Assembly: GCA_016187035.1 (NCBI GenBank) | Contig: JACPKL010000001.1 | Location: 78,607-142,606, forward strand | Source of the DNA: Candidatus Daviesbacteria bacterium | GTDB lineage: Bacteria > Patescibacteriota > Microgenomatia > Daviesbacterales > UBA10151 | Direction of reading: 5' to 3' | Length of the DNA stretch: 64,000 nt | Shown here: piece by piece, positions 2,892 to 19,833 of the stretch | How positions within the stretch are numbered: position 1 is the first letter of the stretch | Layout: every line of letters begins with the position of its first letter | Notes under the pieces: model-generated | What the model saw: the letters and a program-made list of their open reading frames with translations, nothing else | Told to the model about the DNA's origin: nothing | Database searches by the model: none | Program-made: the position numbers and the translations under genes

Positions 2892-3251
2892 ATGAAGACA
2901 AATGCTGTTAAATTCCTTATCATTTTGATAATGAGCGGTTGCCTGCTTGTTTTTACATATCTTTTTCTTGCTTCTCCTCACCGAGTCAGCGGCTCTCCTA
3001 TATCTCCCTTTAAAAGAGGACAATTTATCTTATCAGAAAAGATGACTTACTTATTTTTTCCTCCAGAAGTTGGTGATAGAGTCATCTTCCAACCAGTAGA
3101 AAAACAGGTTGATTCTGTCGGAGCTGGTGACTTTGTGGGAATCATCATGAAAAAAGATAGTGACTTGCATTACACCATCCAGTCAAGAGAAGGTAGTCCC
3201 TGGATAGTATCAAGGAAAGAAATCAAAGAGAGAATATATTATCCATTCTGA
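2892..3251 (+). CDS. membrane-anchored S26 signal-peptidase-like protein, probably catalytically degenerate
   Basis: N-terminal TM. 'VSGSPISPF' aligns to the S26 'GxSMxP' box, but Pro occupies the nucleophile Ser position. Overall resemblance to the 8298 S26-type protein. Confidence 0.35.
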   Translation: MKTNAVKFLIILIMSGCLLVFTYLFLASPHRVSGSPISPFKRGQFILSEKMTYLFFPPEVGDRVIFQPVEKQVDSVGAGDFVGIIMKKDSDLHYTIQSREGSPWIVSRKEIKERIYYPF

Positions 3252-6200
3252 GGATGATCTTTTTTTCGTCTCAAGATCACTGCAACAATTACCAATGATC
3301 CGCCAATGAGTAATACTGCTGCTGCATAGAAAGGAATAAGACGAAGCTTATGCTGAACAGTTTTCTTAAAAACAGAGAATGGATCTGCTTTGGAAGTTCT
3401 GGTAACTATCATTTTGCCAACCGCAGAACTTCCCCATACCTCTGGCGCATACATCAAAGAGGCAGTAACCGGCGGCACGATAAATGTCCCTTCACTTACC
3501 ACCCTTGCTTTGTAGGTATATACTCGCTCACCTGGAACTATTTGATAAAGTGACAACACCATACCATTCTCTGTAACTTCAGTATCAGAAACATCATAGG
3601 AAGTGTAGTAAGTATTTGGATCATATCCATATTGTTCATTTTTAAATGATTGGTTGATCGGTACTAAACCAGAGGGCAACTCATCATTTATTACTCCGTA
3701 ATTTTCATTTGCCTTAAGACCTCCTACAGTTATCTTGACAATCACAGTATCGCCAACACCGATAGAATACTCATCACCCTTTTCATTTACATATTCTCTT
3801 TTAACAGATAAACCACGATTAACTGATTTTGCGTTTCTATCTGTATGGAACTCGGAAGTTACAAGAGTTGAATAGACTTGGCCATCACCTGCTTTATCGA
3901 TTGATAGGGTTGACCCGCCATCCTTAATGTTTGAAACTGGTACAGTAATATCCTGGATAGTCTGTTTTGAATTTGTAACAGTTCCTTGAGCGATTTGTTT
4001 ACCATCCAAAGATACAGCGTAGTTATAATTTGGAGTTAATTCATCACCAGTTTTTGAAAAATCAACCAAGGCTTGAGTAACTTGAGCAGTGGCATATGTA
4101 TTTGACCAATAATCAGATTGTCGGACACGAGTAAGATATCTTACACCTTTAGCTGCTAGGTCTCTATCTCCACCTGCTAATACAATTGCTCTTATGGCGA
4201 GTGCAGTTGAAGCATCTTTTGATCCAAAGTTAAGTTTACTACCTGACCCCCAAAAAACTGCGTCCCCTTGAGTCTGCGCCATAGAAACCAGTTTGTCCAA
4301 ACCATTACTACTAGAATTTTTATCTCCATTTAAGTAATTTGTCATGACAGCAAAAGAGAGTAGATCAGGAGTTAAGTTGTTAAGATCACTTATATGTACA
4401 CTGCTTTTTTGAGCATTAAGCAGGGTTAAGGCGTATGTCTTTGCTACTGTAGCTTCTATGCTGTTATCTTGACTGTTTTCAAGGAAACCTTGAGCTCGTG
4501 ATAACAGATCATCATCAACTTGAGTTCCAGCTTGTTTTGCCTGAAGAAGATACTCTACAACATAAGCTGTTATGAACGGGTCTGATTTACCGGAGAACCA
4601 CCATGCCCATCCGCCATCTCCTTGTTGCAAGGTTGACAGCCTTGAAAGACCTTTTTGGATAACATCATTTAGATCCTTATCTTTTAAGACTTCAGCAAAT
4701 ATATCCTGATTGACTTTTGCTATTACTGCCGGAACAAATCTACTGGTTGTTTGTTCAACACAGCCATAAGGATAGTTGATTAGATATTTCATTGCTGTAG
4801 CTAAAGTACCTATGATAGTCGGTGATAGGGATAGAGTTACTTTGGAATTTTGGGTATGAGCATCAGAAGAAAGTTTTACAGTAAAGCTCTTTGATCCTTC
4901 TCCTGCTTCAGCTCGTCTTTCTTCAAAACCGAAAGGCAAAATAGGTATTTCTTGGGTGACAACATCGGCCAAGTTATTATTGTTTTTCACTCTGGCAGCA
5001 AAGACTAACTTGGACTTTTCATTTTCTGTTGTGGGCTTTACCTTCCAATATAATTGTTTTATTTCATTTGATTTGACAGTCACATCTGAAAAAAGAGGCT
5101 GGTCTATATTGCCTGCGTCAAACTTTAGGTCAATATCAAAAGTTTGATCAAGAGTAGTAAAATTTTGCACAATTGCAGATAAAACTATTTCATCACCAAT
5201 GCGCATGATATTTGGCAAAATCGGACGGACTATGACATCTTTGGTGACTACTATTTCATTTGTTGTTTGTCCGACTCTTGTGTCTGCTGTGGCTGCTACG
5301 GCGGCAATAGTCCAGGTAGTTAAGTTATCAGGTAATTTAAAGCTTACTTGAGCCCTGCCGGCAGCATCTGTACGGATTGAAGGATTCCAATAGGCAGTAT
5401 CTTTGAAAGCATTTCTTTCTATACCCTTATCATTGTGGACCCAAACACCATTGGCAAAATATGTATGATATTTTTCAATCTCCAAATTATAAACGCTGAT
5501 TTTACTTCTTTGCCACTCAACAGAGCTGACCACTACTTTTCTGCCTTGGCTATCAGTTAAAGTATCGCCAACTTGAATACTACCTGCTTGCCTCCAAGCT
5601 TTGCTGACCCACATTATATGGTTGGCTGTCACTTTAAGGTCGCCATTAATGATTAAGTAACCAGCTTCCTCTGTTTGATGAGTTTTTAGCACTTTTGCTT
5701 TTACTAATTTAGAATCTGTCTGACTACTTCTTGTTGAAATATAATCCCCCACCTTGACATCTTCTATATTTTTTAATGTTCCATCAGCCATGAGCACTTT
5801 TGTTCCCGCAGCAAAACAGCCACCGCCGGCTCCTCCCATCTGCTGAACTAAAATACCCTCCAGTGAATGGGACTTTTGAGTTGTATCGCTTCTTTCTTTC
5901 CAGAAGTTTTTAAAAATATCACCAAGTTTATTGTCTGACAGCTCAAAGATTGCTTTATCCACAGTCCAAAGGGCAAGCTCTGTTGAAACAGGGTTTCCTC
6001 CCACATCAGTGGTAGATACGTTGACATTTACCGTTTCCCCAGGACCAAAAGTTTTACTGTTTGGGCTAACTTCAACCAGTAATTTTTTACTCTCTGATGA
6101 GACAACTACATTAATTTGATTTGAATCAAGAGCGCTGCTGGAAAAACTTGAAACTTGGGCATAAATATTTGGTATATCTGTATTTACCAATGGCGCATCA

Positions 6201-8323
6201 ATTGCACCAGTTTTACCATTAAGATGAACTACTTGAAATCTATTAACTCTTCCTCTTTCAAGAGACAAAAAGACATCTCTATCCGGCACCTGTGAGAAAA
6301 TGTTGAAACGCACTGTATCGCCGGGTAGGTATTTTTGTTTATCCGTAGAAATTGTTAAATCGTTATTCCCTCCTTCGGTATAATAAGGCTGGTCTTCTGT
6401 GGAGACATAAGAATAGAAGATTTTTGAAACCAGATTACCCCTGCTGTCTTTACCTTCAACAGTTATGGTGTATGAACCGATTTTGTTTGGCGTCAAGGTA
6501 AACGTAGCGTTCCCTTGTCCATCGGTTCTGGCTGTCAGACCTTGTAAGTCTTCCTCCTCTTTTTTGTATGAAGGGTATTTTTTATCCGGCTCGAGGATCG
6601 ATACCCAATTTGTTCTGTGCAGCTTGGCTGTCAAAGAAATATTAGAAACATTGCCACCGCTTCTGTAAGGGATAAGTGTTACCGGAATATTTTGAGAGGT
6701 ATTCACCTTTGTTCCATAGGAGGTATCTTTGCGGTATATTCCCCAGTCTCCCCCGTAAACTAAGATATTTTTTCTGCTGAAAGACGGATTTTGTGAACCA
6801 TCCTCGTGAGTGGCCTCTATAGAAAATACCTGGCTTTTTCCTTTATTGAAATTCATTACGGTGTTAAGATCTATTTGCGCTTCGCCTTTTTTATCAAGGG
6901 TAGCTGTTCCTTCTGTCACTTTATTGCTGCCGTACCAGTGCCCATAGCGATAATCATCGCTTAAATCTTGAGAAAGGCTTTGCTGGTCAGTTGCATATTG
7001 ATACTCATAAAAATCTGCTGCAAAGACAGTGTATTTTACTTTTTGACCAATCATTGGCTGACTTGAAAAATAAGTACCGGAAATTGTAAATGATGTTTTA
7101 TCTCCGGCTATAAGTTCTGTTTTTGGTGTGGTTACATCAATTGAAAACTCGGGTTTCCTGAAAAATTGCACTTCAAAGTAAGCTGTATTTGAGGAGTATT
7201 CAAAGTCCCAAAAATTCTCTCTGCCTTTCTGCGATGGAACAGTAACAGAAAGATTATAATAATCAACTTTTGCATCGGCTGGTAGCTGATATTGACCACT
7301 TATTGTTCCATCAGAGGATATCGGATAACTTTTTTCAAATACTGAATTCTTTTCATCATACCCTGTATAAATTTTAACTAGAGCTTGCCCGCCTGAAATT
7401 GAATATCGGGCGTCGTCGTCGTCTCTTAGGACTGTTTTAAAATTAACTGTATCTCCTGGTTTGTAAAGTGGCCTGTCAGTAAAGATAAAATATCGAGTTA
7501 ACCTGCCTTTTGGTTGAAACTGTGTATATGAATAACCTGTATTAAGGTATTTTAAGTTTAAAGGAACTATTACCCTATCAGTATTTTGCTCTACTATGGC
7601 AATATCTGCTTGGGCATTTAAGCTTGCTTTGGCTATTCCATCAGCATTAAAGGAAACAGTCTGAAGCTCTTTTTGTAAGTCTGTCAAATTTAATATTTTT
7701 ATCGTTCCATCCGAGATACTTCTTTTAGTTTTGAAATTCTGCCCCCAAAAAATAAATTCATTATCTCCTTCTTTAGTTAAGACGCCAATATTTGATCGTA
7801 GTACAAATGCATCAGCAAAAGTTTTGCCAATTTTGACTTTCAGATACCAAATACCTGTCTCGCCAAAGGGCAAAGGGACTTTTGAACCCTGATAAGAAGC
7901 GGTATTAACAGCATGTTTTACAGTAGTGACGTATTGGAACGAACTTACATCTGGATTTTTCTTTGTCTGTTTACCATCTTTATCGTGAGTTAAATAATCA
8001 AGCATGGCAGCCTCGTTTGCCTGATACATTGTTACTTGCGCCTCACCGGAAATGTTGTATCCGCCTATTATCACTGCCGGTTCATCTGTTGAAGCAAGCG
8101 CTATCAAACCGCCACTACTATAGCCCTGTTCTCCGTCTGAGATATAAATTTGCGGAATTTGTGTATTGCTTCCCAGGACTGTGGACTGCTCAGTTTGTTG
8201 GTTCTGTTGTTTAGCTTGCTGTTTAATCTGCGGGGAGAAAAATAGTGCGAAACCAGTTATTGAAGATATAACCAAAAGAAGGAGTAAAATTAAAAATTTA
8301 TGGCGTGGGAATATTTTGGCCAT
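3239..8323 (-). CDS. alpha-2-macroglobulin family protein with an inserted Hint/BIL domain
   Basis: Thioester motif 'YPYGCVEQTTSRF' (CVEQ encoded at nt 4751-4762). The post-bait motif 'ERNAFKDTAYWNP' and MG-domain-like repeats are present. N-terminal signal/TM from MAKIFPRHKFLILLLLLVISS (start moved from 8440 to the Met at 8323). C-terminal TM anchor. Confidence 0.85.
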   Translation of the reverse strand: MAKIFPRHKFLILLLLLVISSITGFALFFSPQIKQQAKQQNQQTEQSTVLGSNTQIPQIYISDGEQGYSSGGLIALASTDEPAVIIGGYNISGEAQVTMYQANEAAMLDYLTHDKDGKQTKKNPDVSSFQYVTTVKHAVNTASYQGSKVPLPFGETGIWYLKVKIGKTFADAFVLRSNIGVLTKEGDNEFIFWGQNFKTKRSISDGTIKILNLTDLQKELQTVSFNADGIAKASLNAQADIAIVEQNTDRVIVPLNLKYLNTGYSYTQFQPKGRLTRYFIFTDRPLYKPGDTVNFKTVLRDDDDARYSISGGQALVKIYTGYDEKNSVFEKSYPISSDGTISGQYQLPADAKVDYYNLSVTVPSQKGRENFWDFEYSSNTAYFEVQFFRKPEFSIDVTTPKTELIAGDKTSFTISGTYFSSQPMIGQKVKYTVFAADFYEYQYATDQQSLSQDLSDDYRYGHWYGSNKVTEGTATLDKKGEAQIDLNTVMNFNKGKSQVFSIEATHEDGSQNPSFSRKNILVYGGDWGIYRKDTSYGTKVNTSQNIPVTLIPYRSGGNVSNISLTAKLHRTNWVSILEPDKKYPSYKKEEEDLQGLTARTDGQGNATFTLTPNKIGSYTITVEGKDSRGNLVSKIFYSYVSTEDQPYYTEGGNNDLTISTDKQKYLPGDTVRFNIFSQVPDRDVFLSLERGRVNRFQVVHLNGKTGAIDAPLVNTDIPNIYAQVSSFSSSALDSNQINVVVSSESKKLLVEVSPNSKTFGPGETVNVNVSTTDVGGNPVSTELALWTVDKAIFELSDNKLGDIFKNFWKERSDTTQKSHSLEGILVQQMGGAGGGCFAAGTKVLMADGTLKNIEDVKVGDYISTRSSQTDSKLVKAKVLKTHQTEEAGYLIINGDLKVTANHIMWVSKAWRQAGSIQVGDTLTDSQGRKVVVSSVEWQRSKISVYNLEIEKYHTYFANGVWVHNDKGIERNAFKDTAYWNPSIRTDAAGRAQVSFKLPDNLTTWTIAAVAATADTRVGQTTNEIVVTKDVIVRPILPNIMRIGDEIVLSAIVQNFTTLDQTFDIDLKFDAGNIDQPLFSDVTVKSNEIKQLYWKVKPTTENEKSKLVFAARVKNNNNLADVVTQEIPILPFGFEERRAEAGEGSKSFTVKLSSDAHTQNSKVTLSLSPTIIGTLATAMKYLINYPYGCVEQTTSRFVPAVIAKVNQDIFAEVLKDKDLNDVIQKGLSRLSTLQQGDGGWAWWFSGKSDPFITAYVVEYLLQAKQAGTQVDDDLLSRAQGFLENSQDNSIEATVAKTYALTLLNAQKSSVHISDLNNLTPDLLSFAVMTNYLNGDKNSSSNGLDKLVSMAQTQGDAVFWGSGSKLNFGSKDASTALAIRAIVLAGGDRDLAAKGVRYLTRVRQSDYWSNTYATAQVTQALVDFSKTGDELTPNYNYAVSLDGKQIAQGTVTNSKQTIQDITVPVSNIKDGGSTLSIDKAGDGQVYSTLVTSEFHTDRNAKSVNRGLSVKREYVNEKGDEYSIGVGDTVIVKITVGGLKANENYGVINDELPSGLVPINQSFKNEQYGYDPNTYYTSYDVSDTEVTENGMVLSLYQIVPGERVYTYKARVVSEGTFIVPPVTASLMYAPEVWGSSAVGKMIVTRTSKADPFSVFKKTVQHKLRLIPFYAAAVLLIGGSLVIVAVILRRKKDHPQNG
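5432..5818 (-). other. 129-aa Hint (mini-intein / bacterial intein-like) domain embedded in the A2M ORF
   Basis: It starts 'CFAAGTKVLMADG' (block A, Cys1 at nt 5816-5818), has 'TANH' (block B TxxH), and ends 'VYNLEIEKYHTYFANGVWVHN' (blocks F/G, terminal HN at 5432-5437). The +1 residue is Asp, not Cys/Ser/Thr. Confidence 0.75.
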
Positions 8324-8603
8324 AAGATGAATATACCACTTTTCCCACAACTTGATCCATGCTAACTGGACCAAATTCCCTTGAATCAGTACTTTCTTTT
8401 GGGTTATCTCCTGTGACAAAAACTTCACGGTCGTAAACATTTTGTACGCGTTTAACTATTTCCTTACCATCTTGTTTAAGCACAACAATATCTCCTGCTT
8501 TTACTTTATAAAACCAGTTAACAGACACCAGATCTTGACCTTCTCTTAAAGCAGGAAACATAGAATTACCATGGATGGTGAATCTGGAGATAGGAGCTTT
8601 CAT
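8298..8603 (-). CDS. sodX: S26-family peptidase, likely NiSOD maturation protease
   Basis: 'HGNSMFPAL' S26 catalytic Ser box and 'VKRV' Lys region. It lies directly downstream of sodN, separated by 1 nt. Confidence 0.7.
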   Translation of the reverse strand: MKAPISRFTIHGNSMFPALREGQDLVSVNWFYKVKAGDIVVLKQDGKEIVKRVQNVYDREVFVTGDNPKESTDSREFGPVSMDQVVGKVVYSSYGQNIPTP

Positions 8604-8604
8604 A

Positions 8605-9108
8605 CTATTTGTGTGATACTATCTCTCCTCCTGTAGGGTATCCTGAAGGAATTCTAATAGGCTCTAGGCCTTTTGATTTCCAAAAAATCTCTGCAAATTC
8701 CTGTACCTGTAACAACAAATCCATTACTACTGATTCATCAACTCCCTGTTTTGCTTTTGAAGCTAGTTTCATTATTTTCCAAACCTTCTCATGTAAGTTT
8801 GGGGCATCTTTTAAAGCCTCTTCTTTAAAATAATCTCCCCAAATTATTCTAATTTCTTTTTTAACAATTTCTGCATGCTCTTCTTTAATATGAGTTAACC
8901 TGGTAATATCATGGATAATCTTTTTTCTTTCTTCAAGAGGGATGCCATCGCTTTCCACTTTAAGACTTTTTATTAATTTAGTCATTCTCAAAACTGTGTG
9001 GGCTGCTATTTGGGCTGGGTATGGATCATATATCCCACAGGGAATATCACAATGAGCAAAAATGGGTTTTGCAGGAAGGAGTTTAATTAGGAGATTAACT
9101 AAATTCAT
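8605..9108 (-). CDS. sodN: nickel superoxide dismutase precursor
   Basis: Ni-hook 'HCDIPCGIYDP' preceded by a short propeptide (MNLVNLLIKLLPAKPIFA). Length is about 167 aa. Confidence 0.9.
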   Translation of the reverse strand: MNLVNLLIKLLPAKPIFAHCDIPCGIYDPYPAQIAAHTVLRMTKLIKSLKVESDGIPLEERKKIIHDITRLTHIKEEHAEIVKKEIRIIWGDYFKEEALKDAPNLHEKVWKIMKLASKAKQGVDESVVMDLLLQVQEFAEIFWKSKGLEPIRIPSGYPTGGEIVSHK

Positions 9109-9265: not shown

Positions 9266-10189
9266 TCACTTCATATTCTCTAAATATTCTTCTGCGTCAA
9301 AGGTAGCTTTACAGCCTGCTCCTGCAGCTGTGACTGCCTGGCGGTAATGATAATCAGCCACATCCCCTGCTACAAACACTCCATCTACTGAGGTTTTAGT
9401 TTCATCATGGATAACAACATATCCTTTTTGATCTAAGTTTATTTGCCCTTTTAAAAATGTTGTATTTGGTTTATGGCCTATGGCAATAAAAATGCCATCT
9501 ATTTGAAATTCTTGGGTCTCCCCGGTTTGGGTATTTTTTAATTTTACGCCAGTCACTTTATCCTGCCCCAAGACTGCCTCTACTTGAGAATTCCAGATCA
9601 AATCAACGTTTGGTTTGGATTTGACTAGCTCTTGTAAAGCCAGTTGGGCCCTAAGTTGATCCCTTCTGTGGACTACTGTGACCTTTTTACAAAGCTTGGA
9701 TAGATAAGCTGCTTCCCTCATGGCAGTATCCCCTCCTCCTACCACTACAACATTCTTACCTTTGAAGAAAAACCCATCGCATACTGCACAGGCAGAGACT
9801 CCTTTTCCCCGAAGCTTTGTTTCCGATTCTAAACCCAACCACATTGCTGAAGCTCCTGTTGCCAGGATAACTGTTTGAGCTGACAATACTTGGGTTTCTG
9901 TTTTAATTTCAAAAGGCTTTTTGGAAAAATCCACTGATACCACATCTTCACTGATAAATCTGGTGTTAAAACGCTCTGCCTGTTTTCTGATTTTACTCAT
10001 CAACTCCGGTCCTTGAATACCCTCAGGAAAACCTGGAAAATCGTCTACATCTGTAGTCTGGATTAACTGTCCTCCTGCTTCCCTACCAGCTATTACTAAC
10101 GGGTTTAGGCCTCCTCTGGCAGCATAAATGCCGGCTGTTAATCCTGCCGGTCCAGAACCAATAATAATCAGTTTCTCACTCTTTTCCAT
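9266..10189 (-). CDS. trxB: thioredoxin-disulfide reductase
   Basis: 'IIGSGPAGLTAGIYAARG' FAD motif, redox-active 'CAVCDG', and second dinucleotide motif 'VVGGGDTA'. Confidence 0.92.
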   Translation of the reverse strand: MEKSEKLIIIGSGPAGLTAGIYAARGGLNPLVIAGREAGGQLIQTTDVDDFPGFPEGIQGPELMSKIRKQAERFNTRFISEDVVSVDFSKKPFEIKTETQVLSAQTVILATGASAMWLGLESETKLRGKGVSACAVCDGFFFKGKNVVVVGGGDTAMREAAYLSKLCKKVTVVHRRDQLRAQLALQELVKSKPNVDLIWNSQVEAVLGQDKVTGVKLKNTQTGETQEFQIDGIFIAIGHKPNTTFLKGQINLDQKGYVVIHDETKTSVDGVFVAGDVADYHYRQAVTAAGAGCKATFDAEEYLENMK

Positions 10190-10494: not shown

Positions 10495-11136
10495 TCAACC
10501 CTTTGACAGACCCAGGGTAAATATTGATGCAAAAAACCCCATTCCTGCCCCCAGTAGCGCCCCGCCAATCACATCTGATGTCCAATGTTCCCCTAAATAT
10601 ACCCTGGTTACTCCCATTAACAAAGAAAAAACCAATATAGAAAGCGTACCGATATATTTCATCAGAGGGTTTTTTGATTTATAGATCATAGCCAGCAAAA
10701 TGGTAGCAATAAAAATTGTCCTGGTCATATGCCCTGAAGGATAAGAATAATCAGTATGAACATAGAAAGACGGTAATGTTGTAAATAAAGAGGTTCTATT
10801 TAAAAAAAATGGAGGAGCAGGATGAAATAATACTAGTTTTCCAAATACCTCTCCCATTGATGCCGGCACAATCATTGACCAGCCTAAAATTGCCAGCCAC
10901 TTTAACCTAATCATTGATAGAACAGCCATTATCAAGCAAAAACCAATTGTGACTTCTGCACTGCCTAATAAGCTAAAGTAGGAGAAATATTTATCAAACC
11001 TTCTTGAGATATGATCCTGCAGCTTAACAGTGGTATCAAAATCAAATTGAACCCATCTTTCTTTGGCAACAGTATAAGAAAAATAAGTAAACAAAATAGT
11101 TAAGAGCAAGGCGCACAGGAATAGTTTTTTTCTCAC
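10495..11136 (-). CDS. PAP2-family phosphatase (membrane)
   Basis: PAP2 motifs 'SYPSGH' and 'RVYLGEHWTSDV'; multiple TM segments. Confidence 0.8.
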   Translation of the reverse strand: MRKKLFLCALLLTILFTYFSYTVAKERWVQFDFDTTVKLQDHISRRFDKYFSYFSLLGSAEVTIGFCLIMAVLSMIRLKWLAILGWSMIVPASMGEVFGKLVLFHPAPPFFLNRTSLFTTLPSFYVHTDYSYPSGHMTRTIFIATILLAMIYKSKNPLMKYIGTLSILVFSLLMGVTRVYLGEHWTSDVIGGALLGAGMGFFASIFTLGLSKG

Positions 11137-12792: not shown

Positions 12793-13365
12793 TTAAAAAG
12801 ACCTTGCAGCAATTACTGCTATAAATATCCCGATTGAGTTTAAAAGGAAGGATAGTATAAGAAACTGCCAGTTCTTTAACTTTGACACGCCAAGTAATCC
12901 TATTCCTAGCTCATCCGGAAAAGGAGAAGCAATAATCAAAGCCCCTAAAAAGGGTAGTAACCATCCAAAATATGGTGTTTTAAATAGTTTAACTAATATA
13001 TTACCTCCACTATTTAGAAATAGAGGTTTAAGCTCGTCAAATACCCTGTCCCTTAAAAACCTGAAGATTAAATAATCACCAACTACCGCACCTATTCCGG
13101 CAAATAACGCTACCATTAGAGGATTAAGGTGATCTGCAAGAAAGTAAAGAACCACTATTGCAGGAGCCACAGTAAAAATAGAAACAAAGAGTATTCCTGT
13201 AATAAAAGCTCCGATATAACCGAAGCTGCCAATCAAATCGATGGTGTTTCGTACAGCGGGATGCTCCGCAAAGAGAAAAAAGACAGTCAAGCTAAGAATG
13301 AGTAAAGCAGTATTTTTATAATGCCAATTTTTCCATCTGTTATTTAACCTAACCAATTCTTCCAT
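12793..13365 (-). CDS. polytopic membrane protein (DedA/VTT-like)
   Basis: About 5 TM segments, with 'GAVVGDYLIFRF' resembling the DedA/VTT signature. Confidence 0.55.
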   Translation of the reverse strand: MEELVRLNNRWKNWHYKNTALLILSLTVFFLFAEHPAVRNTIDLIGSFGYIGAFITGILFVSIFTVAPAIVVLYFLADHLNPLMVALFAGIGAVVGDYLIFRFLRDRVFDELKPLFLNSGGNILVKLFKTPYFGWLLPFLGALIIASPFPDELGIGLLGVSKLKNWQFLILSFLLNSIGIFIAVIAARSF

Positions 13366-13384
13366 ATATTTATCTTACTATCGT

Positions 13385-13636
13385 CTAAGCTATCTTAAAT
13401 CCTTTTTCATTTATCCAAGATGTTATGGTAGATGAGACTAATCCCAAGATAAAAGAAGAGATTGTTATATTTAAAGCTGCCTTACTAAACCCAATACCAT
13501 GAAACCAGGATCCCGCAATGGAAAATGAAATATCAGGAAATAATCCCACCAAGATAGCACACAGTACAAAAACAGAAGCTGTTGTCACAGCTAAAGCATT
13601 AGGGATAGCATATGATTGTGTTTTCATCAATTCCAC
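13385..13636 (-). CDS. small two/three-TM membrane protein
   Basis: Hydrophobic 83-aa ORF with no recognised motif. Confidence 0.5.
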   Translation of the reverse strand: MELMKTQSYAIPNALAVTTASVFVLCAILVGLFPDISFSIAGSWFHGIGFSKAALNITISSFILGLVSSTITSWINEKGFKIA

Positions 13637-13771
13637 CTCCTCTCGAGAAAATTCATTAGATAATCACATCATTGCATTAATAACAAGAGGTGTAAAGAGG
13701 AAATGAGAACAAAATTGGCTCCGTATTCCTAGTTTTAATCGAACTTGAAGTATCAATTCGAACCTATCTTG

Positions 13772-14056
13772 CTAATCTAGGACTACTTTTTTCTCCCCTT
13801 TTATATATTGACGAATTAATAAACCGATTAAGGTTTGATAGGCTATACCATTTCTCTTGGCTTTCGCTTTAACCTTAATCAAATCCTCAGTATTAACCCT
13901 GAGTGTGATACTTTTTGTTTGTTGTAACTGCCTGAAGTTTTCAGCAGCTTCCTGAAACATCTGTTTAGTAGCTTCTAAATTAGGTACGCTAACAAATTCG
14001 CCCTTATCTAGCGCATCCTCTATTTCTTGCTCGTATTTATCAAGTATGACTCTCAT
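13772..14056 (-). CDS. BrnA-like antitoxin (RHH C-terminus)
   Basis: It overlaps the upstream toxin gene by 4 nt. The C-terminal 'ITLRVNTEDLIKVKAKAKRNGIAYQTLI' is a ribbon-helix-helix pattern typical of BrnA/COG3514 antitoxins. Confidence 0.65.
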   Translation of the reverse strand: MRVILDKYEQEIEDALDKGEFVSVPNLEATKQMFQEAAENFRQLQQTKSITLRVNTEDLIKVKAKAKRNGIAYQTLIGLLIRQYIKGEKKVVLD

Positions 14057-14376
14057 TTTTTGATACCTCCTTTCAAATATTTATCAGTCAACACCCTACT
14101 TGGATAGACTGTTTTAAGGAAAATTGCTCTTCTTTTTTTATCTATTACGTAAGGCACTGCATACACGTATTCTTTTATCTTTATTACTAATATTCTCTGG
14201 TGAGGATATTTTTTGCTACTATGCTGTATGTCAACTAGTATTTTCTTCTCTTCAATAGCAGTAACTACATCCTCAAACCCCACCCTCCTAGTTTCTTTTA
14301 ATAACCAATTCTTCTCTTCGGCGAATTCAATTCTGTAACCTTTGTACTGCACAAAGATATTATACTCTGTGTACAT
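14053..14376 (-). CDS. BrnT-like (DUF497) toxin
   Basis: 107 aa. 'IEFAEEKNWLLKETRRVGFEDVVTAI' resembles the BrnT 'FEWDxxKxxxNxxKHGxxFEEA' region. Operonic with the RHH partner. Confidence 0.6.
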   Translation of the reverse strand: MYTEYNIFVQYKGYRIEFAEEKNWLLKETRRVGFEDVVTAIEEKKILVDIQHSSKKYPHQRILVIKIKEYVYAVPYVIDKKRRAIFLKTVYPSRVLTDKYLKGGIKK

Positions 14377-15737: not shown

Positions 15738-17513
15738 TTAGAGATTTTTCAGCTTTACTGACAGATCTCTGAAACGCTTATTCAGCGTTTCCACCATTTC
15801 CATCTTACCAAATTCCTGGGCATTTTTAATTTCAAAAGACAATTTTTCTAACGAGGCTTTAATTAAAGCCTTTTTCAGCTCTGCCACCACCCCTGTCATC
15901 TCTTTTTGCCAGTTTTTTGCATCAACCAGCTTACCATCTAACTCTGTTAAGTATAATGTATCTACTTCTGTTAGTAATTCTTTAGGTAAGTTGGCAGAAA
16001 ACTCATTAATATGAAAGGCCCTCATTTTAAATGAAATAGAATCTAAATATAACACCAGTAAAACATATAACTGCCTGAAAGCTTCTTTTAAAAATAAAGT
16101 TTCTGGAAAAGATGGCACAAAATCAGAATCCTTAGGAGGATGTAAAAGCAAAGCAATTAAATATTCCTCAAGTAATTCTCTTCTGGACCTAGCTCCTACC
16201 ACATTATCTTGTTTATTTTTTTGCTGAAAAATCTGTTTAAAGTTGGGCTCAGCTGATTTTCTGATCTTTTCAATAGTGTCCCGCAGGATCTTATCATCTA
16301 TTTTGAGAAAGGCTGACAGCTTTTGAATATAGTGTTCTCTGACTAAATCATTAGGTATTTTTGCCCAAACAGGAATCAATTCTTCTCCAATCCTTTTTAA
16401 ATCAGATGCTTTTTTAATATCAAAACGGCGGGCTGTTGAGAAAAGGTAATAATCATAAATAGGTTGTGCATCCTGAATAGCTTTTTGCCAAAGATTTTTA
16501 TCCTCTTTAATAATTTCTGCAGCGTCTTTACCCCCCATTATCTCTATAACTTTAATGTTTAAATTTGCTTTCTCAGCTAACTCAATACCTCTTCTGGAAG
16601 CACTATCCCCAGCTAAATCCATATCAAAACAAAAGCTTAAATTTTCAGTATATTTTTTCAACAGTTCAATTTGACCCTCAGTTAAAGCAGTTCCTTTGCA
16701 AGCTACCACATTTTTAAATCCTGCTTGATGAGATAAAATCACATCCATTTCTCCTTCCACCAAGATAGCTTCTTTTTTATTTCTAATCTCAGTCTTAGCT
16801 AAATTCAAACCAAACAAAAATTGGCTTTTATCAAAAATTGGTGTTTGAGGACTATTAATATATTTTGGTTCAACTGCATGTAAAACACGGCCTGAAAAAC
16901 CTCTCAATTTCTCCTTTCCGTCAATTAAGGGAAAAGTGATTCTACCCCTAAAACGATCGTAACAACCAGCTTTTGAACTAACACCTAAACCTGAGGTTAC
17001 TGTTTCTGAAATAGTAAAGTTCCTTTTGAGCAAAAATTTAGTTAGGGATTCCCAGGAATTTGGGGCATATCCTAAACCAAACTCTTCAATAGCAAGGGAT
17101 GTGATATTCCTACCTCGGAGATACTCTAAAGCTCTTTTACCCAAGTTATGCTTGGTTAGCATATAATGGAAAAACTCCTGAGCTTTTAAATTGATTTCAA
17201 ATAGTCTATCTTTAAAATCTTTTTTAGCCTCAGTTTGCCTAAGAGTTATACCAGCTTTTTTAGCTAAAGTTTCTAGCGCATCTTTAAAATCCATCCCTTC
17301 CTTTTCCATTAGAAAAGTAAAGACATCACCACTTTTACTGCAGCCAAAACATTTAAAAATCTGCCTTTCCGGGGAAACTACAAAAGAAGGAGTCTTTTCA
17401 TTATGGAAAGGGCAATTAGCTTTAAAATTTACACCAGCTTTTTTAAGGGGAAGGTATTCCTGGATTAAATCTACAATATTTACTTTTTGTTTAATCAGTT
17501 CAACATCATCCAT
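15738..17513 (-). CDS. dnaG: DNA primase
   Basis: Zn-ribbon '[25 protein letters not shown]'; TOPRIM '[11 protein letters not shown]'. Adjacent to rpoD, the classic operon. Confidence 0.95.
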
Positions 17514-17637
17514 AGTCTAACAATCATCCCAAAAGTCCCCTGTACCAGACGGCGCAGGGAGGCTTCCAGGTATTGCGGTGGGAATTATACCCCAAAGAAG
17601 TCCCGAAGGCAATACTACTGGTATAATAGACGATACT

Positions 17638-17724
17638 GGAGGAGTCAGATAGCGGTTTATTCTACGCGCTTGGAAAGCGCGCGAGCGCAAGCTCACGCGG
17701 GTTCGAATCCCGCCTCCTCCGCCA
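17638..17724 (+). tRNA. tRNA-Ser(GGA)
   Basis: ggaggagtcagatagcggt...cgcgcttGGAaagcgcg, a long variable arm (cgagcgcaagctcac), T-arm gggttcgaatccc, and encoded CCA. Confidence 0.9.
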
Positions 17725-17765
17725 AACTTGACAAGTTGTCAAGAAAATATTATATTTTACATAGT

Positions 17766-18005
17766 ATGCAACAGTTGACTGTAGGTCAGTTTAAATCAAA
17801 ATTTTCACAAGTATTGGAAAAAGTGCTGCAAGGTGAAAGCGTTGGCATTACCTATGGCAAGAGCAAAAAAAAAGTAGCAGCTCTGGTGCCGTATAATAAG
17901 GTATTTAAGAATCACAGCATTAAATTGGGTTTACTTACAGGAAAGGCTTCGTTTAAAATAAGGCGTGGTTTTAAGATGACCGACGAAGAATTTTTGGGAT
18001 CGTGA
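17766..18005 (+). CDS. Phd/YefM-type antitoxin
   Basis: The track ORF 17487..18005 was trimmed to the Met after the tRNA (MQQLTVGQFKSKFSQVLEKV...). There is a 4-nt overlap with the downstream PIN gene. Confidence 0.65.
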   Translation: MQQLTVGQFKSKFSQVLEKVLQGESVGITYGKSKKKVAALVPYNKVFKNHSIKLGLLTGKASFKIRRGFKMTDEEFLGS

Positions 18006-18400
18006 ATTATCTGATTGATACACATTTATTCTTGTGGGCTCTATTTTCTTCGAAAAAAATCTCAAATTCTGTAAAAAAGATTTTACTAAACCCTCAAGAT
18101 GCAAAGTATATCAGCGCAGTTACGTTTTGGGAGATTTCTCTTAAATTCCAACTTAAAAAAATTGAGTTAAAAGGAGCTTTACCGGACGAGTTGCCAAATC
18201 AAGCCCAAAAAATCGGCTTTGAAATTTTAAACCTTGATTCCGAAACAGTATCTTCATTTTACAAATTGCCTATAATAAAAAATAGGGACCCATTTGACCG
18301 GATGCTGGCTTGGCAAGCTATTAATAAAGATTATTGCTTGCTGACACAAGATCCTGATTTTGCAGAATATAGGGACCATGGCTTGAAGGTAATCTGGTAA
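18002..18400 (+). CDS. vapC: PIN-domain toxin (VapC family)
   Basis: 'LIDTHLFLW' N-terminal acidic PIN motif; C-terminal 'DPFDRMLAWQA...LLTQD'. Confidence 0.8.
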   Translation: MNYLIDTHLFLWALFSSKKISNSVKKILLNPQDAKYISAVTFWEISLKFQLKKIELKGALPDELPNQAQKIGFEILNLDSETVSSFYKLPIIKNRDPFDRMLAWQAINKDYCLLTQDPDFAEYRDHGLKVIW

Positions 18401-19144: not shown

Positions 19145-19435
19145 ATGCAGATACAACCTACCACTATCACCCAAAAAGGCCAGGTCACTATCCCTGTTTC
19201 CATCAGAAAAGCTCTGGGGCTTAAACGCGGAGACCAGGTAAAATTCATCCTCGGTAAGAAAAAGGAGGTAAGGATTAAGCCTGCCAAAAAGTTTTCTATA
19301 ATGTCTTTATACGGCTCCTTAAAACCCCGGATAAAGTATAAAAAAACAGATGATATTTATCAAATTATCAAGAGAGAAGAACAAGCTTGGCCTGAGGCTG
19401 CTGCTGAAAGAGATTTAAAAAGTAAAAGCAGATGA
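19145..19435 (+). CDS. AbrB/MazE/SpoVT-family antitoxin
   Basis: 'KGQVTIPVSIRKALGLKRGDQVKF' swapped-hairpin motif; 4-nt overlap with the PIN gene. Confidence 0.8.
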   Translation: MQIQPTTITQKGQVTIPVSIRKALGLKRGDQVKFILGKKKEVRIKPAKKFSIMSLYGSLKPRIKYKKTDDIYQIIKREEQAWPEAAAERDLKSKSR

Positions 19436-19833
19436 TATTTTTGGACACAAATATAATCTTAAGATTTATTTTAAAAGATCATCCTATTTATTCCCCTAAA
19501 GCAGAGACAATCATTGAAAAAATTGATAAGGGTATTGTCAAAGTTTACATCTCTTGGCCGACTATTCTTGAGGTAGTATTTATATTGCAAAATTCCATTA
19601 AGTTACCCAAAAAAGAAATTACTGAAAAATTACTGCCGATTTTTCATTTAGAAAACGTAAATTTAGAACACGGAAAATTACTTGACAATATCTTTGGATA
19701 TTATGTGGATAAAAATATCAGTTTAACAGATGCATATCACGTTGCATTAATGGAGAAGAAAAAAGTTAAACAGATTTATTCTTTTGATCAAGACTTTGAT
19801 AAATTCTCACAAATCAAGAGATTAGAGGGCTAA
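19432..19833 (+). CDS. vapC: PIN-domain toxin (VapC family)
   Basis: 'IFLDTNIILRF' and C-terminal 'IYSFDQDF'. Confidence 0.8.
   Translation: MIFLDTNIILRFILKDHPIYSPKAETIIEKIDKGIVKVYISWPTILEVVFILQNSIKLPKKEITEKLLPIFHLENVNLEHGKLLDNIFGYYVDKNISLTDAYHVALMEKKKVKQIYSFDQDFDKFSQIKRLEG

Follow-up and report, generated by a model that had tools for sequence, protein, structure and literature searches.

A Hint domain of the bacterial intein-like type in the bait loop of a thioester alpha-2-macroglobulin from a Daviesbacteria genome, a candidate for autocatalytic chain processing

A common rule defines the alpha-2-macroglobulin (A2M)/C3 family, namely that the thioester fires only once the bait or activation loop has been cut by an external protease; in the known A2Ms, this scission triggers the conformational change that exposes the thioester. 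The only known activity of Hint domains, in turn, is to break, and sometimes to rejoin, the peptide bonds that flank them. Here, we describe a gene in which the two meet. In a 64,000-nucleotide stretch of DNA from a Candidatus Daviesbacteria genome (contig JACPKL010000001.1, positions 78,607 to 142,606; hereafter, the window), the minus strand encodes an A2M-family protein with a 129-aa Hint domain in its bait loop, and on the reading that we favour this domain would sever the loop without any protease.

The closest described relatives of the inserted domain are the type-A bacterial intein-like (BIL) or PT-HINT domains (2LWY; pretoxin Hint 8W20), which have in common with it the Hint fold, Cys1, a TxxH motif, the terminal His-Asn and a length of ~130 aa, as well as the lack of a +1 nucleophile and of an endonuclease, and a position within variable parts of secreted or surface proteins. 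Their known hosts, however, are toxins of the FhaB, MafB and Rhs types and cellulosomal proteins, from which they release C-terminal cargo, whereas here the host site is the bait loop of an A2M; the window family is further set apart by an invariant Gly at -1 and a near-invariant Lys at +2. The host protein resembles ECAM/YfhM and SaA2M in its array of macroglobulin (MG) domains, the bait-region domain inside MG8, the CxEQ motif in the thioester-containing domain (TED) and the C-terminal MG10, while the PbpC neighbour of these A2Ms is kept in long-form relatives only; unlike them, it has transmembrane anchors rather than a lipobox, and its conserved, Gly-rich bait of ~18 residues is split by a 129-aa domain. 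Complement C3, C4 and C5 offer a topological parallel, as a whole domain (ANA; C5 613-783) lies at the same position between MG halves. These proteins and insect TEP1 have native forms in which the chain is cut and the thioester intact, and removal of C3a or C5a is the activating step. In complement, the cutting is done by furin and convertases, whereas here the inserted domain is predicted to carry its own cleavage chemistry, and ANA and Hint are not homologous. Class 1 mini-inteins (e.g. Mtu RecA) likewise have blocks A, B, F and G and are inserted with precise boundaries, but the window Hint has no +1 Cys, Ser or Thr and does not interrupt an essential enzyme at a conserved site.

The segment that encodes the Hint domain is enclosed by a single uninterrupted minus-strand open reading frame (ORF; 3239-8440, 1733 codons), with Met40 (8321-8323) as its probable start; a 100% identical database protein (P0001, a hypothetical protein of Candidatus Daviesbacteria) begins at this residue. 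The features of the gene are as follows, in the order of the protein.

3239..8323, minus strand: A2M-family gene, thioester alpha-2-macroglobulin of 1694-1733 aa (ORF open to 8440)
8237..8296, minus strand: N-terminal hydrophobic segment, signal peptide or signal anchor, aa 49-68 (Kyte-Doolittle)
5939..6358, minus strand: A2M bait-region domain (A2M_BRD), aa 695-834 (45.8 bits, cut-off 22.7)
5819..5878, minus strand: N-side residual bait linker, aa 855-874, ending GGAGGG (predicted local distance difference test score (pLDDT) <50; conservation)
5432..5818, minus strand: Hint / type-A BIL (PT-HINT) domain, aa 875-1003, 129 aa (Pfam, NCBIfam, phmmer, AlphaFold2 (AF2), Foldseek)
5816..5818, minus strand: Cys875, Cys1 of the Hint domain, predicted nucleophile of an N-S acyl shift (conservation)
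5618..5629, minus strand: block B, T-A-N-H, Thr938 to His941 (Thr and His each in 121/121)
5432..5437, minus strand: His1002-Asn1003, block G, with the Asn predicted to form a succinimide (conservation)
5402..5431, minus strand: C-side linker DKGIERNAFK, aa 1004-1013 (conservation; pLDDT)
5132..5398, minus strand: Pfam A2M domain, aa 1015-1103, opening with FKDTAYWNP
4751..4765, minus strand: thioester motif G-C-V-E-Q, aa 1226-1230, in the TED (sequence motif)
3440..3814, minus strand: bacterial A2M MG10 (C-terminal MG) domain, aa 1543-1667 (75.6 bits)
3272..3331, minus strand: C-terminal transmembrane anchor, aa 1704-1723, followed by RRKKDHPQNG (hydrophobicity scan)

Five Pfam domains score above their cut-offs, namely MG2 (317-411), A2M_BRD (695-834, spanning model positions 1-140 of 140), A2M (1015-1103), TED (1213-1326) and bMG10 (1543-1667), and phmmer matches the protein to SaA2M and ECAM with E=1e-21 to 1e-22. 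In A2M, C3 and C5, it is the FKDTAYWNP-type motif that comes after the bait region or ANA. The thioester Cys1227 follows Asn1003 by 224 residues, the spacing given in the preliminary description of this DNA, and the motif GC[VTISN]EQ is present in 120/120 homologues. Hydrophobic segments were found at the N-terminus of 111 and at the C-terminus of all 119 homologues compared, and it is such segments, rather than the lipobox of ECAM and SaA2M, that are seen in the window protein. Its only two Cys residues are Cys1 of the Hint domain and the thioester Cys; exactly these two are also found in 90/119 homologues, which means that Cys1 has been kept in an extracytoplasmic protein otherwise purged of Cys. 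Judged by its sequence, the host is a type I (thioester), membrane-anchored bacterial A2M of a Microgenomates, Daviesbacteria-like member of the candidate phyla radiation (CPR).

The minus-strand translation of 5432-5818, CFAAGTKVLMADG...VTANH...GVWVHN, lies between ...QQMGGAGGG and DKGIERNAFKDTAYWNP, as the preliminary description, which did not state the strand, had it. As an isolated segment, it matches PT-HINT (PF07591) with 61.5 bits (cut-off 27.7, E=1.3e-16, model positions 3-136 of 137) and the intein C-terminal region TIGR01443 with 28.7 bits (cut-off 15.6), so that the domain is complete. Among solved structures, the best relative by phmmer is 2LWY, the 'bacterial intein-like domain' of C. 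thermocellum (E=2e-15), and the toxin-associated Hint 8W20 also ranks among the best. In the AF2 model of aa 691-1110, the Hint part is confident (pLDDT 76-97), and Foldseek superposes it on 2LWY with a TM-score of 0.83 and a root-mean-square deviation of 1.9 A, the second-best neighbour being BIL2 of Tetrahymena BUBL (6Y75, TM-score 0.80); the remainder of the model matches A2M, C3, C5 and ECAM. No homing endonuclease is inserted within the 129 residues. A C-terminal His-Asn separates type-A from type-B BILs and from the Hog domains of Hedgehog proteins. By every sequence and structure criterion, the domain is a type-A BIL/PT-HINT, given the Hint fold, Cys1, the TxxH motif, the terminal His-Asn, the absence of a +1 nucleophile and of an endonuclease, and a site within a variable surface-protein loop. 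A Hog-type Hint was ruled out, as the domain ends in His-Asn and ~730 more A2M residues follow, and an assembly artefact is excluded by the finding that all 120 best homologues, from many independent samples, carry both PF07591 and the A2M domains.

To place the insertion site, a profile of 21 family members from which the Hint domain had been deleted was searched against PDB sequences. The flanks of the deletion align to complement C5 556-613 and 783-860, which puts the junction within the LNK/ANA/alpha'NT stretch, between residues 613 and 783. In human A2M, profile position 119 aligns with residue 731, and the junction falls near 727/728, a few residues past the bait arginines R704, R715 and R719 (PMC8167298). 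In E. coli YfhM (translated from K-12), hhalign places it at ~950/951; alone, this alignment is weak (probability 16.7%), but its anchors concur with those of phmmer and counting from the conserved flanking anchors gives 947-957, in the bait region, and the YfhM mapping was relied on only jointly with the phmmer anchors, the anchor counting and the comparison with empty sites. The N-side linker aligns with the disordered bait of YfhM, and both linkers beside the Hint domain (aa 855-873 and 1006-1013) are low in confidence in the AF2 model (pLDDT <50) and predicted to be disordered. The C-side linker holds the non-nucleophilic +1 Asp, the invariant Lys1005 (+2), Gly1006 and Arg1009.

The most direct evidence for the bait-loop placement comes from orthologues in which the site is naturally empty. 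There, the loop reads ...HSLEGI....AEKGGGGG-D.R..F.DTAYWNP, whereas in Hint-bearing proteins it reads ...HSLEGI....AEGGG|Hint|[QDE]KG..R..FKDTAYWNP. Without the Hint domain, the occupied loop counts 16-22 residues (n=180) and the Hint-less loop 17-21 (n=17); the occupied loop minus Hint is thus short, Gly-rich and conserved in length rather than hypervariable, and the lengths of its N- and C-terminal parts show a weak negative correlation (r=-0.22, p ~0.03, without correction for phylogeny). On these alignments, the Hint domain is located in the bait loop, as had been proposed from the flanking motifs alone. At the core of the Hint-less short-form loop (in L017, L019, L020 and P0148-P0264, at the equivalent of window aa 864-1011) is a pentaglycine-type run (AE-K-GGGGG-D-x-R). 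Such a loop differs from the hypervariable baits found in classical A2Ms and resembles a decoy directed at Gly-Gly endopeptidases of the lysostaphin/M23 type or at proteases specific to Lys or Arg. The long forms of Chloroflexi have variable baits of 5-60 residues, rich in Ala, Pro, Met and Glu, after the Gly run.

Conservation was assessed in a close-family alignment of 121 sequences (homologues from 100% down to 50% identity) and in a second set, for which 50%-identity cluster representatives were searched exhaustively with HMMER and the best 150 taken, 124 of them with full-length Hint matches; together, these make ~245 sequences, down to ~33% host identity. The source names of the 120 best homologues are Daviesbacteria, Gottesmanbacteria, Woesebacteria and Woykebacteria. 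Cys875, Phe876, Thr938, His941, Asn985, His1002 and Asn1003 are invariant in the 121 sequences, and Cys1 and the terminal His-Asn are present in 124/124 representatives. In both sets, the -1 residue (Gly874) is always Gly. The +1 position is variable, with Q79/D22/E20 in the close family and Q49 D39 G14 E13 K3 N2 S2 L1 A1 among the representatives, and underwent at least 40 substitutions across the tree; Ser occurs there in two of the ~245 sequences, Cys or Thr never, which bears out the earlier judgement that the domain is BIL-like and not a canonical intein. Lys at +2 (Lys1005) is found in 121/121 close homologues and 120/124 representatives, with Gly1006 nearly invariant in the close family. 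Neither this Lys nor an invariant -1 Gly is shown by the flanks of other PT-HINT proteins, and the Hint-less orthologues have no Lys at the position equivalent to +2.

Within the close family, Hint and host have diverged alike (pairwise identity 58% versus 57%) and co-vary (r=0.78). At depth, the Hint domain is more conserved than its host (44% versus 33%), but its identity plateaus at ~42-44% whatever the host identity, and the correlation of Hint and host distances is uninformative at that depth. Base composition does not distinguish the domain from the gene (GC 38.0% versus 38.7%; GC at third codon positions 31.0% versus 30.2%), which speaks against a recent horizontal acquisition. With no endonuclease, with a composition and divergence like those of its host, and with the co-variation, the Hint domain now appears to behave as a resident part of the gene. 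One pair of proteins stands apart, the long form L013 and the short form P0171, whose Hint domains are 58% identical and whose hosts are 25% identical, ~3.8 standard deviations above the mean for pairs at that host identity; this outlier could reflect a transfer of the Hint domain between A2M paralogues at the Gly-run site.

In a survey of the best 80 loci, with one genome per GTDB species, the Hint domain was present in 15, labelled as Microgenomates, WWE3, Moranbacteria, Roizmanbacteria, 'Patescibacteria' and some Gammaproteobacteria or Micavibrio, and absent from 65, which belong to Peribacteria, Gracilibacteria, Saccharibacteria, Chloroflexota, Acidobacteriota and others. Some of the Hint-A2M contigs (L002, L004, L005, L009 and L013-L015) are labelled 'uncultured Gammaproteobacteria', 'Nevskiaceae' or 'Micavibrio sp.', some with the Memo-like neighbour described below; these are probably mis-binned or mislabelled metagenome-assembled genomes, or else the gene occurs outside CPR. 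Among the best 150 cluster representatives, 126 (84%) have the Hint domain, and ~15% of related lineages are Hint-less. The domain occupies one and the same site in two architectures, a short form of ~1700 aa and a long form of 2100-2300 aa (L012-L014); the nearest Hint-less relatives of the Hint-bearing long forms are long forms of Chloroflexi and Peribacteria.

The conserved residues and the established mechanism of BILs and inteins, from which each chemical step and product given here is inferred, suggest the following course. Cys875 would attack the carbonyl of Gly874 in an N-S acyl shift aided by Thr938 and His941, giving a Gly thioester, while Asn1003, aided by His1002, would cyclise to a succinimide and free the C-terminal part. 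As there is no +1 Cys, Ser or Thr, no branched intermediate would form, and cleavage products would be expected to dominate, as they do in characterised type-A BILs. The products would be an N-terminal chain that comprises MG1 up to the first half of MG8 and ends in ...GGG, the 129-aa Hint domain on its own, and a C-terminal chain starting at DKG... (the second half of MG8, MG9, CUB, TED, MG10 and the transmembrane anchor). The two chains would be held together non-covalently and possibly also by two membrane anchors; with a hydrophobic anchor conserved at either terminus, neither chain need leave the membrane. In the end, the bait loop would be severed autocatalytically, leaving a two-chain A2M without the action of any protease, a reading to which we give a probability of roughly 0.45. 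By analogy, the scission would amount either to a maturation like that of C3/C4/C5 or TEP1, with the thioester left intact, or to the equivalent of bait cleavage, that is, to self-activation.

Several points weigh against autocatalytic severing. Because bait scission is what fires the known A2Ms, constitutive self-cleavage would seem to spend the trap for nothing. Once the Hint domain is taken out, the loop is as long as the Hint-less loop, which is what would be expected if a ligated, Hint-free protein were the functional species. The avoidance of Ser, Thr and Cys at +1 lies only weakly below background (2/113 leaves versus 11-15%). Furthermore, in 22 full-length, Hint-less close representatives the thioester is retained, as are the hydrophobic segments at both ends and the small number of Cys residues, and Hint-less and Hint-bearing A2Ms have the same architecture and the same neighbours (Memo-like or PbpC). 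In a neighbour-joining tree with the Hint domain masked (100 bootstraps; crude for sequences that are ~35-50% identical), the Hint-less ingroup is interspersed among Hint-bearing proteins and monophyletic in 0/100 bootstraps. With Hint-less lineages so scattered, and with the thioester, membrane topology and gene neighbours unchanged in them, the sequences indicate that the Hint domain is dispensable for whatever these A2Ms do. Finally, type-A BILs are able to ligate without a nucleophile (PMC4031507).

All 100 bootstrap trees require at least 15 parsimony changes in the presence or absence of the Hint domain, and the Hint-less P0237 clusters with three Hint-bearing proteins in 100/100 replicates. 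A single gain followed by strict vertical descent is ruled out by the lack of monophyly and by these changes in every tree. On this evidence, losses or gains of the domain were numerous, and the module was exact in every case; its patchy presence and the saturation of deep Hint identity mean that gains may have occurred beside losses.

What then happens to the Gly874 thioester is the point on which the alternatives turn. The preliminary description held that a +1 Asp cannot serve in splicing and that the domain would therefore cleave; its first half stands, as there is no +1 nucleophile, but the second does not follow strictly, since alpha-amine ligation is possible (PMC4031507) and BIL2 makes Lys isopeptides (PMC8616854). 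The alternative that we take most seriously, while we would not expect it to prevail, is self-excision with re-ligation, in which the +1 alpha-amine freed by the cyclisation of Asn1003 attacks the Gly874 thioester ('nucleophile-free splicing'). Such a reaction of type-A BILs with a C-terminal His-Asn has been both proposed and observed (PMC4031507), and the -1 residue, always Gly, would offer the least hindered thioester. The outcome would be an intact Gly-rich bait of ~18 residues (...AEGGG-DKGIER...), like that of Hint-less orthologues, in an ordinary protease trap, with the Hint domain as a tolerated or conditional intein-like passenger that, for instance, delays maturation until after export or folding. 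The equal loop lengths and the weak length anticorrelation given above fit this outcome, as do the many independent switches between presence and absence among otherwise equivalent orthologues with the same neighbours. In tested BILs, however, cleavage dominates, and a single change of the +1 residue to Cys, Ser or Thr makes efficient splicers (PMC7664689); that this change has hardly ever been adopted, despite at least 40 substitutions at the site, argues that efficient splicing was not selected, although the deficit is weak against the background of 11-15%. Moreover, without a homing endonuclease, an element lost so often should vanish unless it is useful, yet this one is found in 84% of the representatives.

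A variant that joins severing to the complement parallel, and that we consider rather unlikely, is that the Hint domain acts as a built-in 'convertase', which cuts the chain or makes a Gly thioester and is then expelled through Asn cyclisation, like C3a, the thioester being captured by Lys1005, to give an isopeptide-branched A2M, or by a foreign amine. Were this true, CPR A2Ms would have two independent thioester chemistries, and activation or crosslinking could proceed without an attacking protease, or arming could depend on a condition that controls the Hint chemistry.

Transfer of the Gly874 thioester to an amine other than the +1 alpha-amine, taken by itself, seems improbable to us. By analogy, the acceptor could be the epsilon-amine of Lys1005, which would give an isopeptide-branched, covalently continuous A2M with a free N-terminal stub, or an external amine of a target protein or a cell-wall stem peptide, which would make the Hint domain a second covalent warhead or an anchoring device. 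The conservation of Lys at +2 (121/121 and 120/124) next to a variable +1 residue would fit the former, the more so as this Lys is not conserved after other PT-HINT domains and is absent from Hint-less orthologues. Tetrahymena BUBL BIL2 (6Y75/6TMM; TM-score 0.80) likewise has a Gly-Gly donor end, as ubiquitin-like donors do, a C-extein Lys and no +1 nucleophile, and it forms Lys isopeptides with that Lys and with other substrates (PMC8616854). It is, however, eukaryotic and has ubiquitin-like flanks, and the isopeptide demonstrated there is hypothetical here, so that the case is one of pure analogy. Equally, Lys1005, Gly1006 and Arg1009 could be P1 sites for proteases in the bait, or could contact the C-terminal MG domain after cleavage, as with Arg956 of ECAM.

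That the folded Hint domain is inert, a structural plug or an enlarged bait beside which proteases would cut the disordered linkers, seems very unlikely: both linkers are indeed predicted in the model to be disordered and contain Lys and Arg, and Hint-less orthologues work with a simple loop, but all catalytic residues are conserved in the ~245 sequences down to ~33% host identity, and Cys1 has survived although the protein has otherwise been purged of Cys. A selfish class 1 mini-intein of the ordinary kind, which splices cleanly and which the blocks A, B and G, the precise insertion and removal at a single site and the patchy distribution might suggest, was rejected, as the +1 position holds Asp here and essentially never Cys, Ser or Thr in the family, no endonuclease is present, the site is a disordered, variable surface loop of a non-essential secreted protein rather than a conserved active site, and the best family matches are to BIL/PT-HINT domains and not to inteins.

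The genes around the window A2M are the following.

2892-3251, plus strand: small ORF convergent with the A2M gene, its end overlapping the A2M stop region by 13 nt
8298-9108, minus strand: nickel superoxide dismutase (NiSOD; PF09055, N-terminal HCDIPCGIYDP hook), then a small S26-family peptidase (SodX-like maturation protease)
9266-10189, minus strand: thioredoxin-reductase-like gene
10495-11136, minus strand: PAP2 gene
13772-14376, minus strand; 17487-18400, plus strand; 19145-19833, plus strand: three two-gene modules, type II toxin-antitoxin-like

Of these neighbours, NiSOD, the S26 peptidase, thioredoxin reductase and PAP2 are not conserved with A2M. The NiSOD and peptidase genes lie directly upstream, and the peptidase ORF overlaps the 5' extension of the A2M ORF. 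The convergent ORF at 2892-3251 has an N-terminal match to S26 signal peptidases of 22.8 bits, just below the cut-off of 22.9, and may be a truncated or degenerate peptidase gene. The two-gene modules consist, in the order listed, of a CopG-like antitoxin and a partner, a small ORF and a PIN domain, and a MazE/AbrB-like antitoxin and a PIN domain, and on sequence they look like type II toxin-antitoxin pairs.

Elsewhere, the short-form CPR A2Ms are usually followed directly by a membrane-anchored Memo-like gene (PF01875), often with overlapping stop and start, as seen in 10 loci (L002, at 13207-14115(+), L003-L007, L009, L010, L017 and L018), of which L017 is Hint-less. The long forms, with or without Hint, adjoin a bifunctional penicillin-binding protein of the PbpC type (Transgly + Transpeptidase + BiPBP_C), as in L013 (4102-6507(+)), L014 and ~15 Hint-less long-form loci, so that the yfhM-pbpC pairing of E. 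coli is conserved in Chloroflexota, Peribacteria and Roizmanbacteria-like genomes. In the window, no Memo-like gene lies downstream of the A2M gene and no pbpC adjoins it. As the Memo-like and PbpC genes occur with both Hint-bearing and Hint-less A2Ms, they are uninformative about the Hint domain, and a functional link to the neighbours was not supported.

In the literature, A2M-domain membrane proteins of CPR bacteria figure only as a putative protection from host proteases (PMC8080830). No description of an A2M with an intein, Hint or PT-HINT domain was found in the full-text literature, the coverage of which is incomplete, so that this absence is no proof of novelty. Both components are well known; what appears to be new is their combination at the bait site, its spread over hundreds of sequences, and the flanking context of Gly(-1) and Lys(+2). 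The novel activation or maturation mechanism envisaged in the preliminary description is a prediction, tempered by the scattered Hint-less lineages.

If the chain stays cut, the family would provide a case of protease-independent maturation or activation of a thioester protein, a bacterial parallel to complement processing and C3a release. If, instead, the chain is rejoined, it would be the clearest natural case of 'nucleophile-free' BIL splicing kept in a single conserved host protein. The Hint-less orthologues are available as natural controls, and the invariant Gly(-1)/Lys(+2) context may interest protein-ligation engineers. Either way, these A2Ms constitute a new, experimentally tractable host of BIL domains and add to our knowledge of the cell surface of episymbiotic CPR bacteria.

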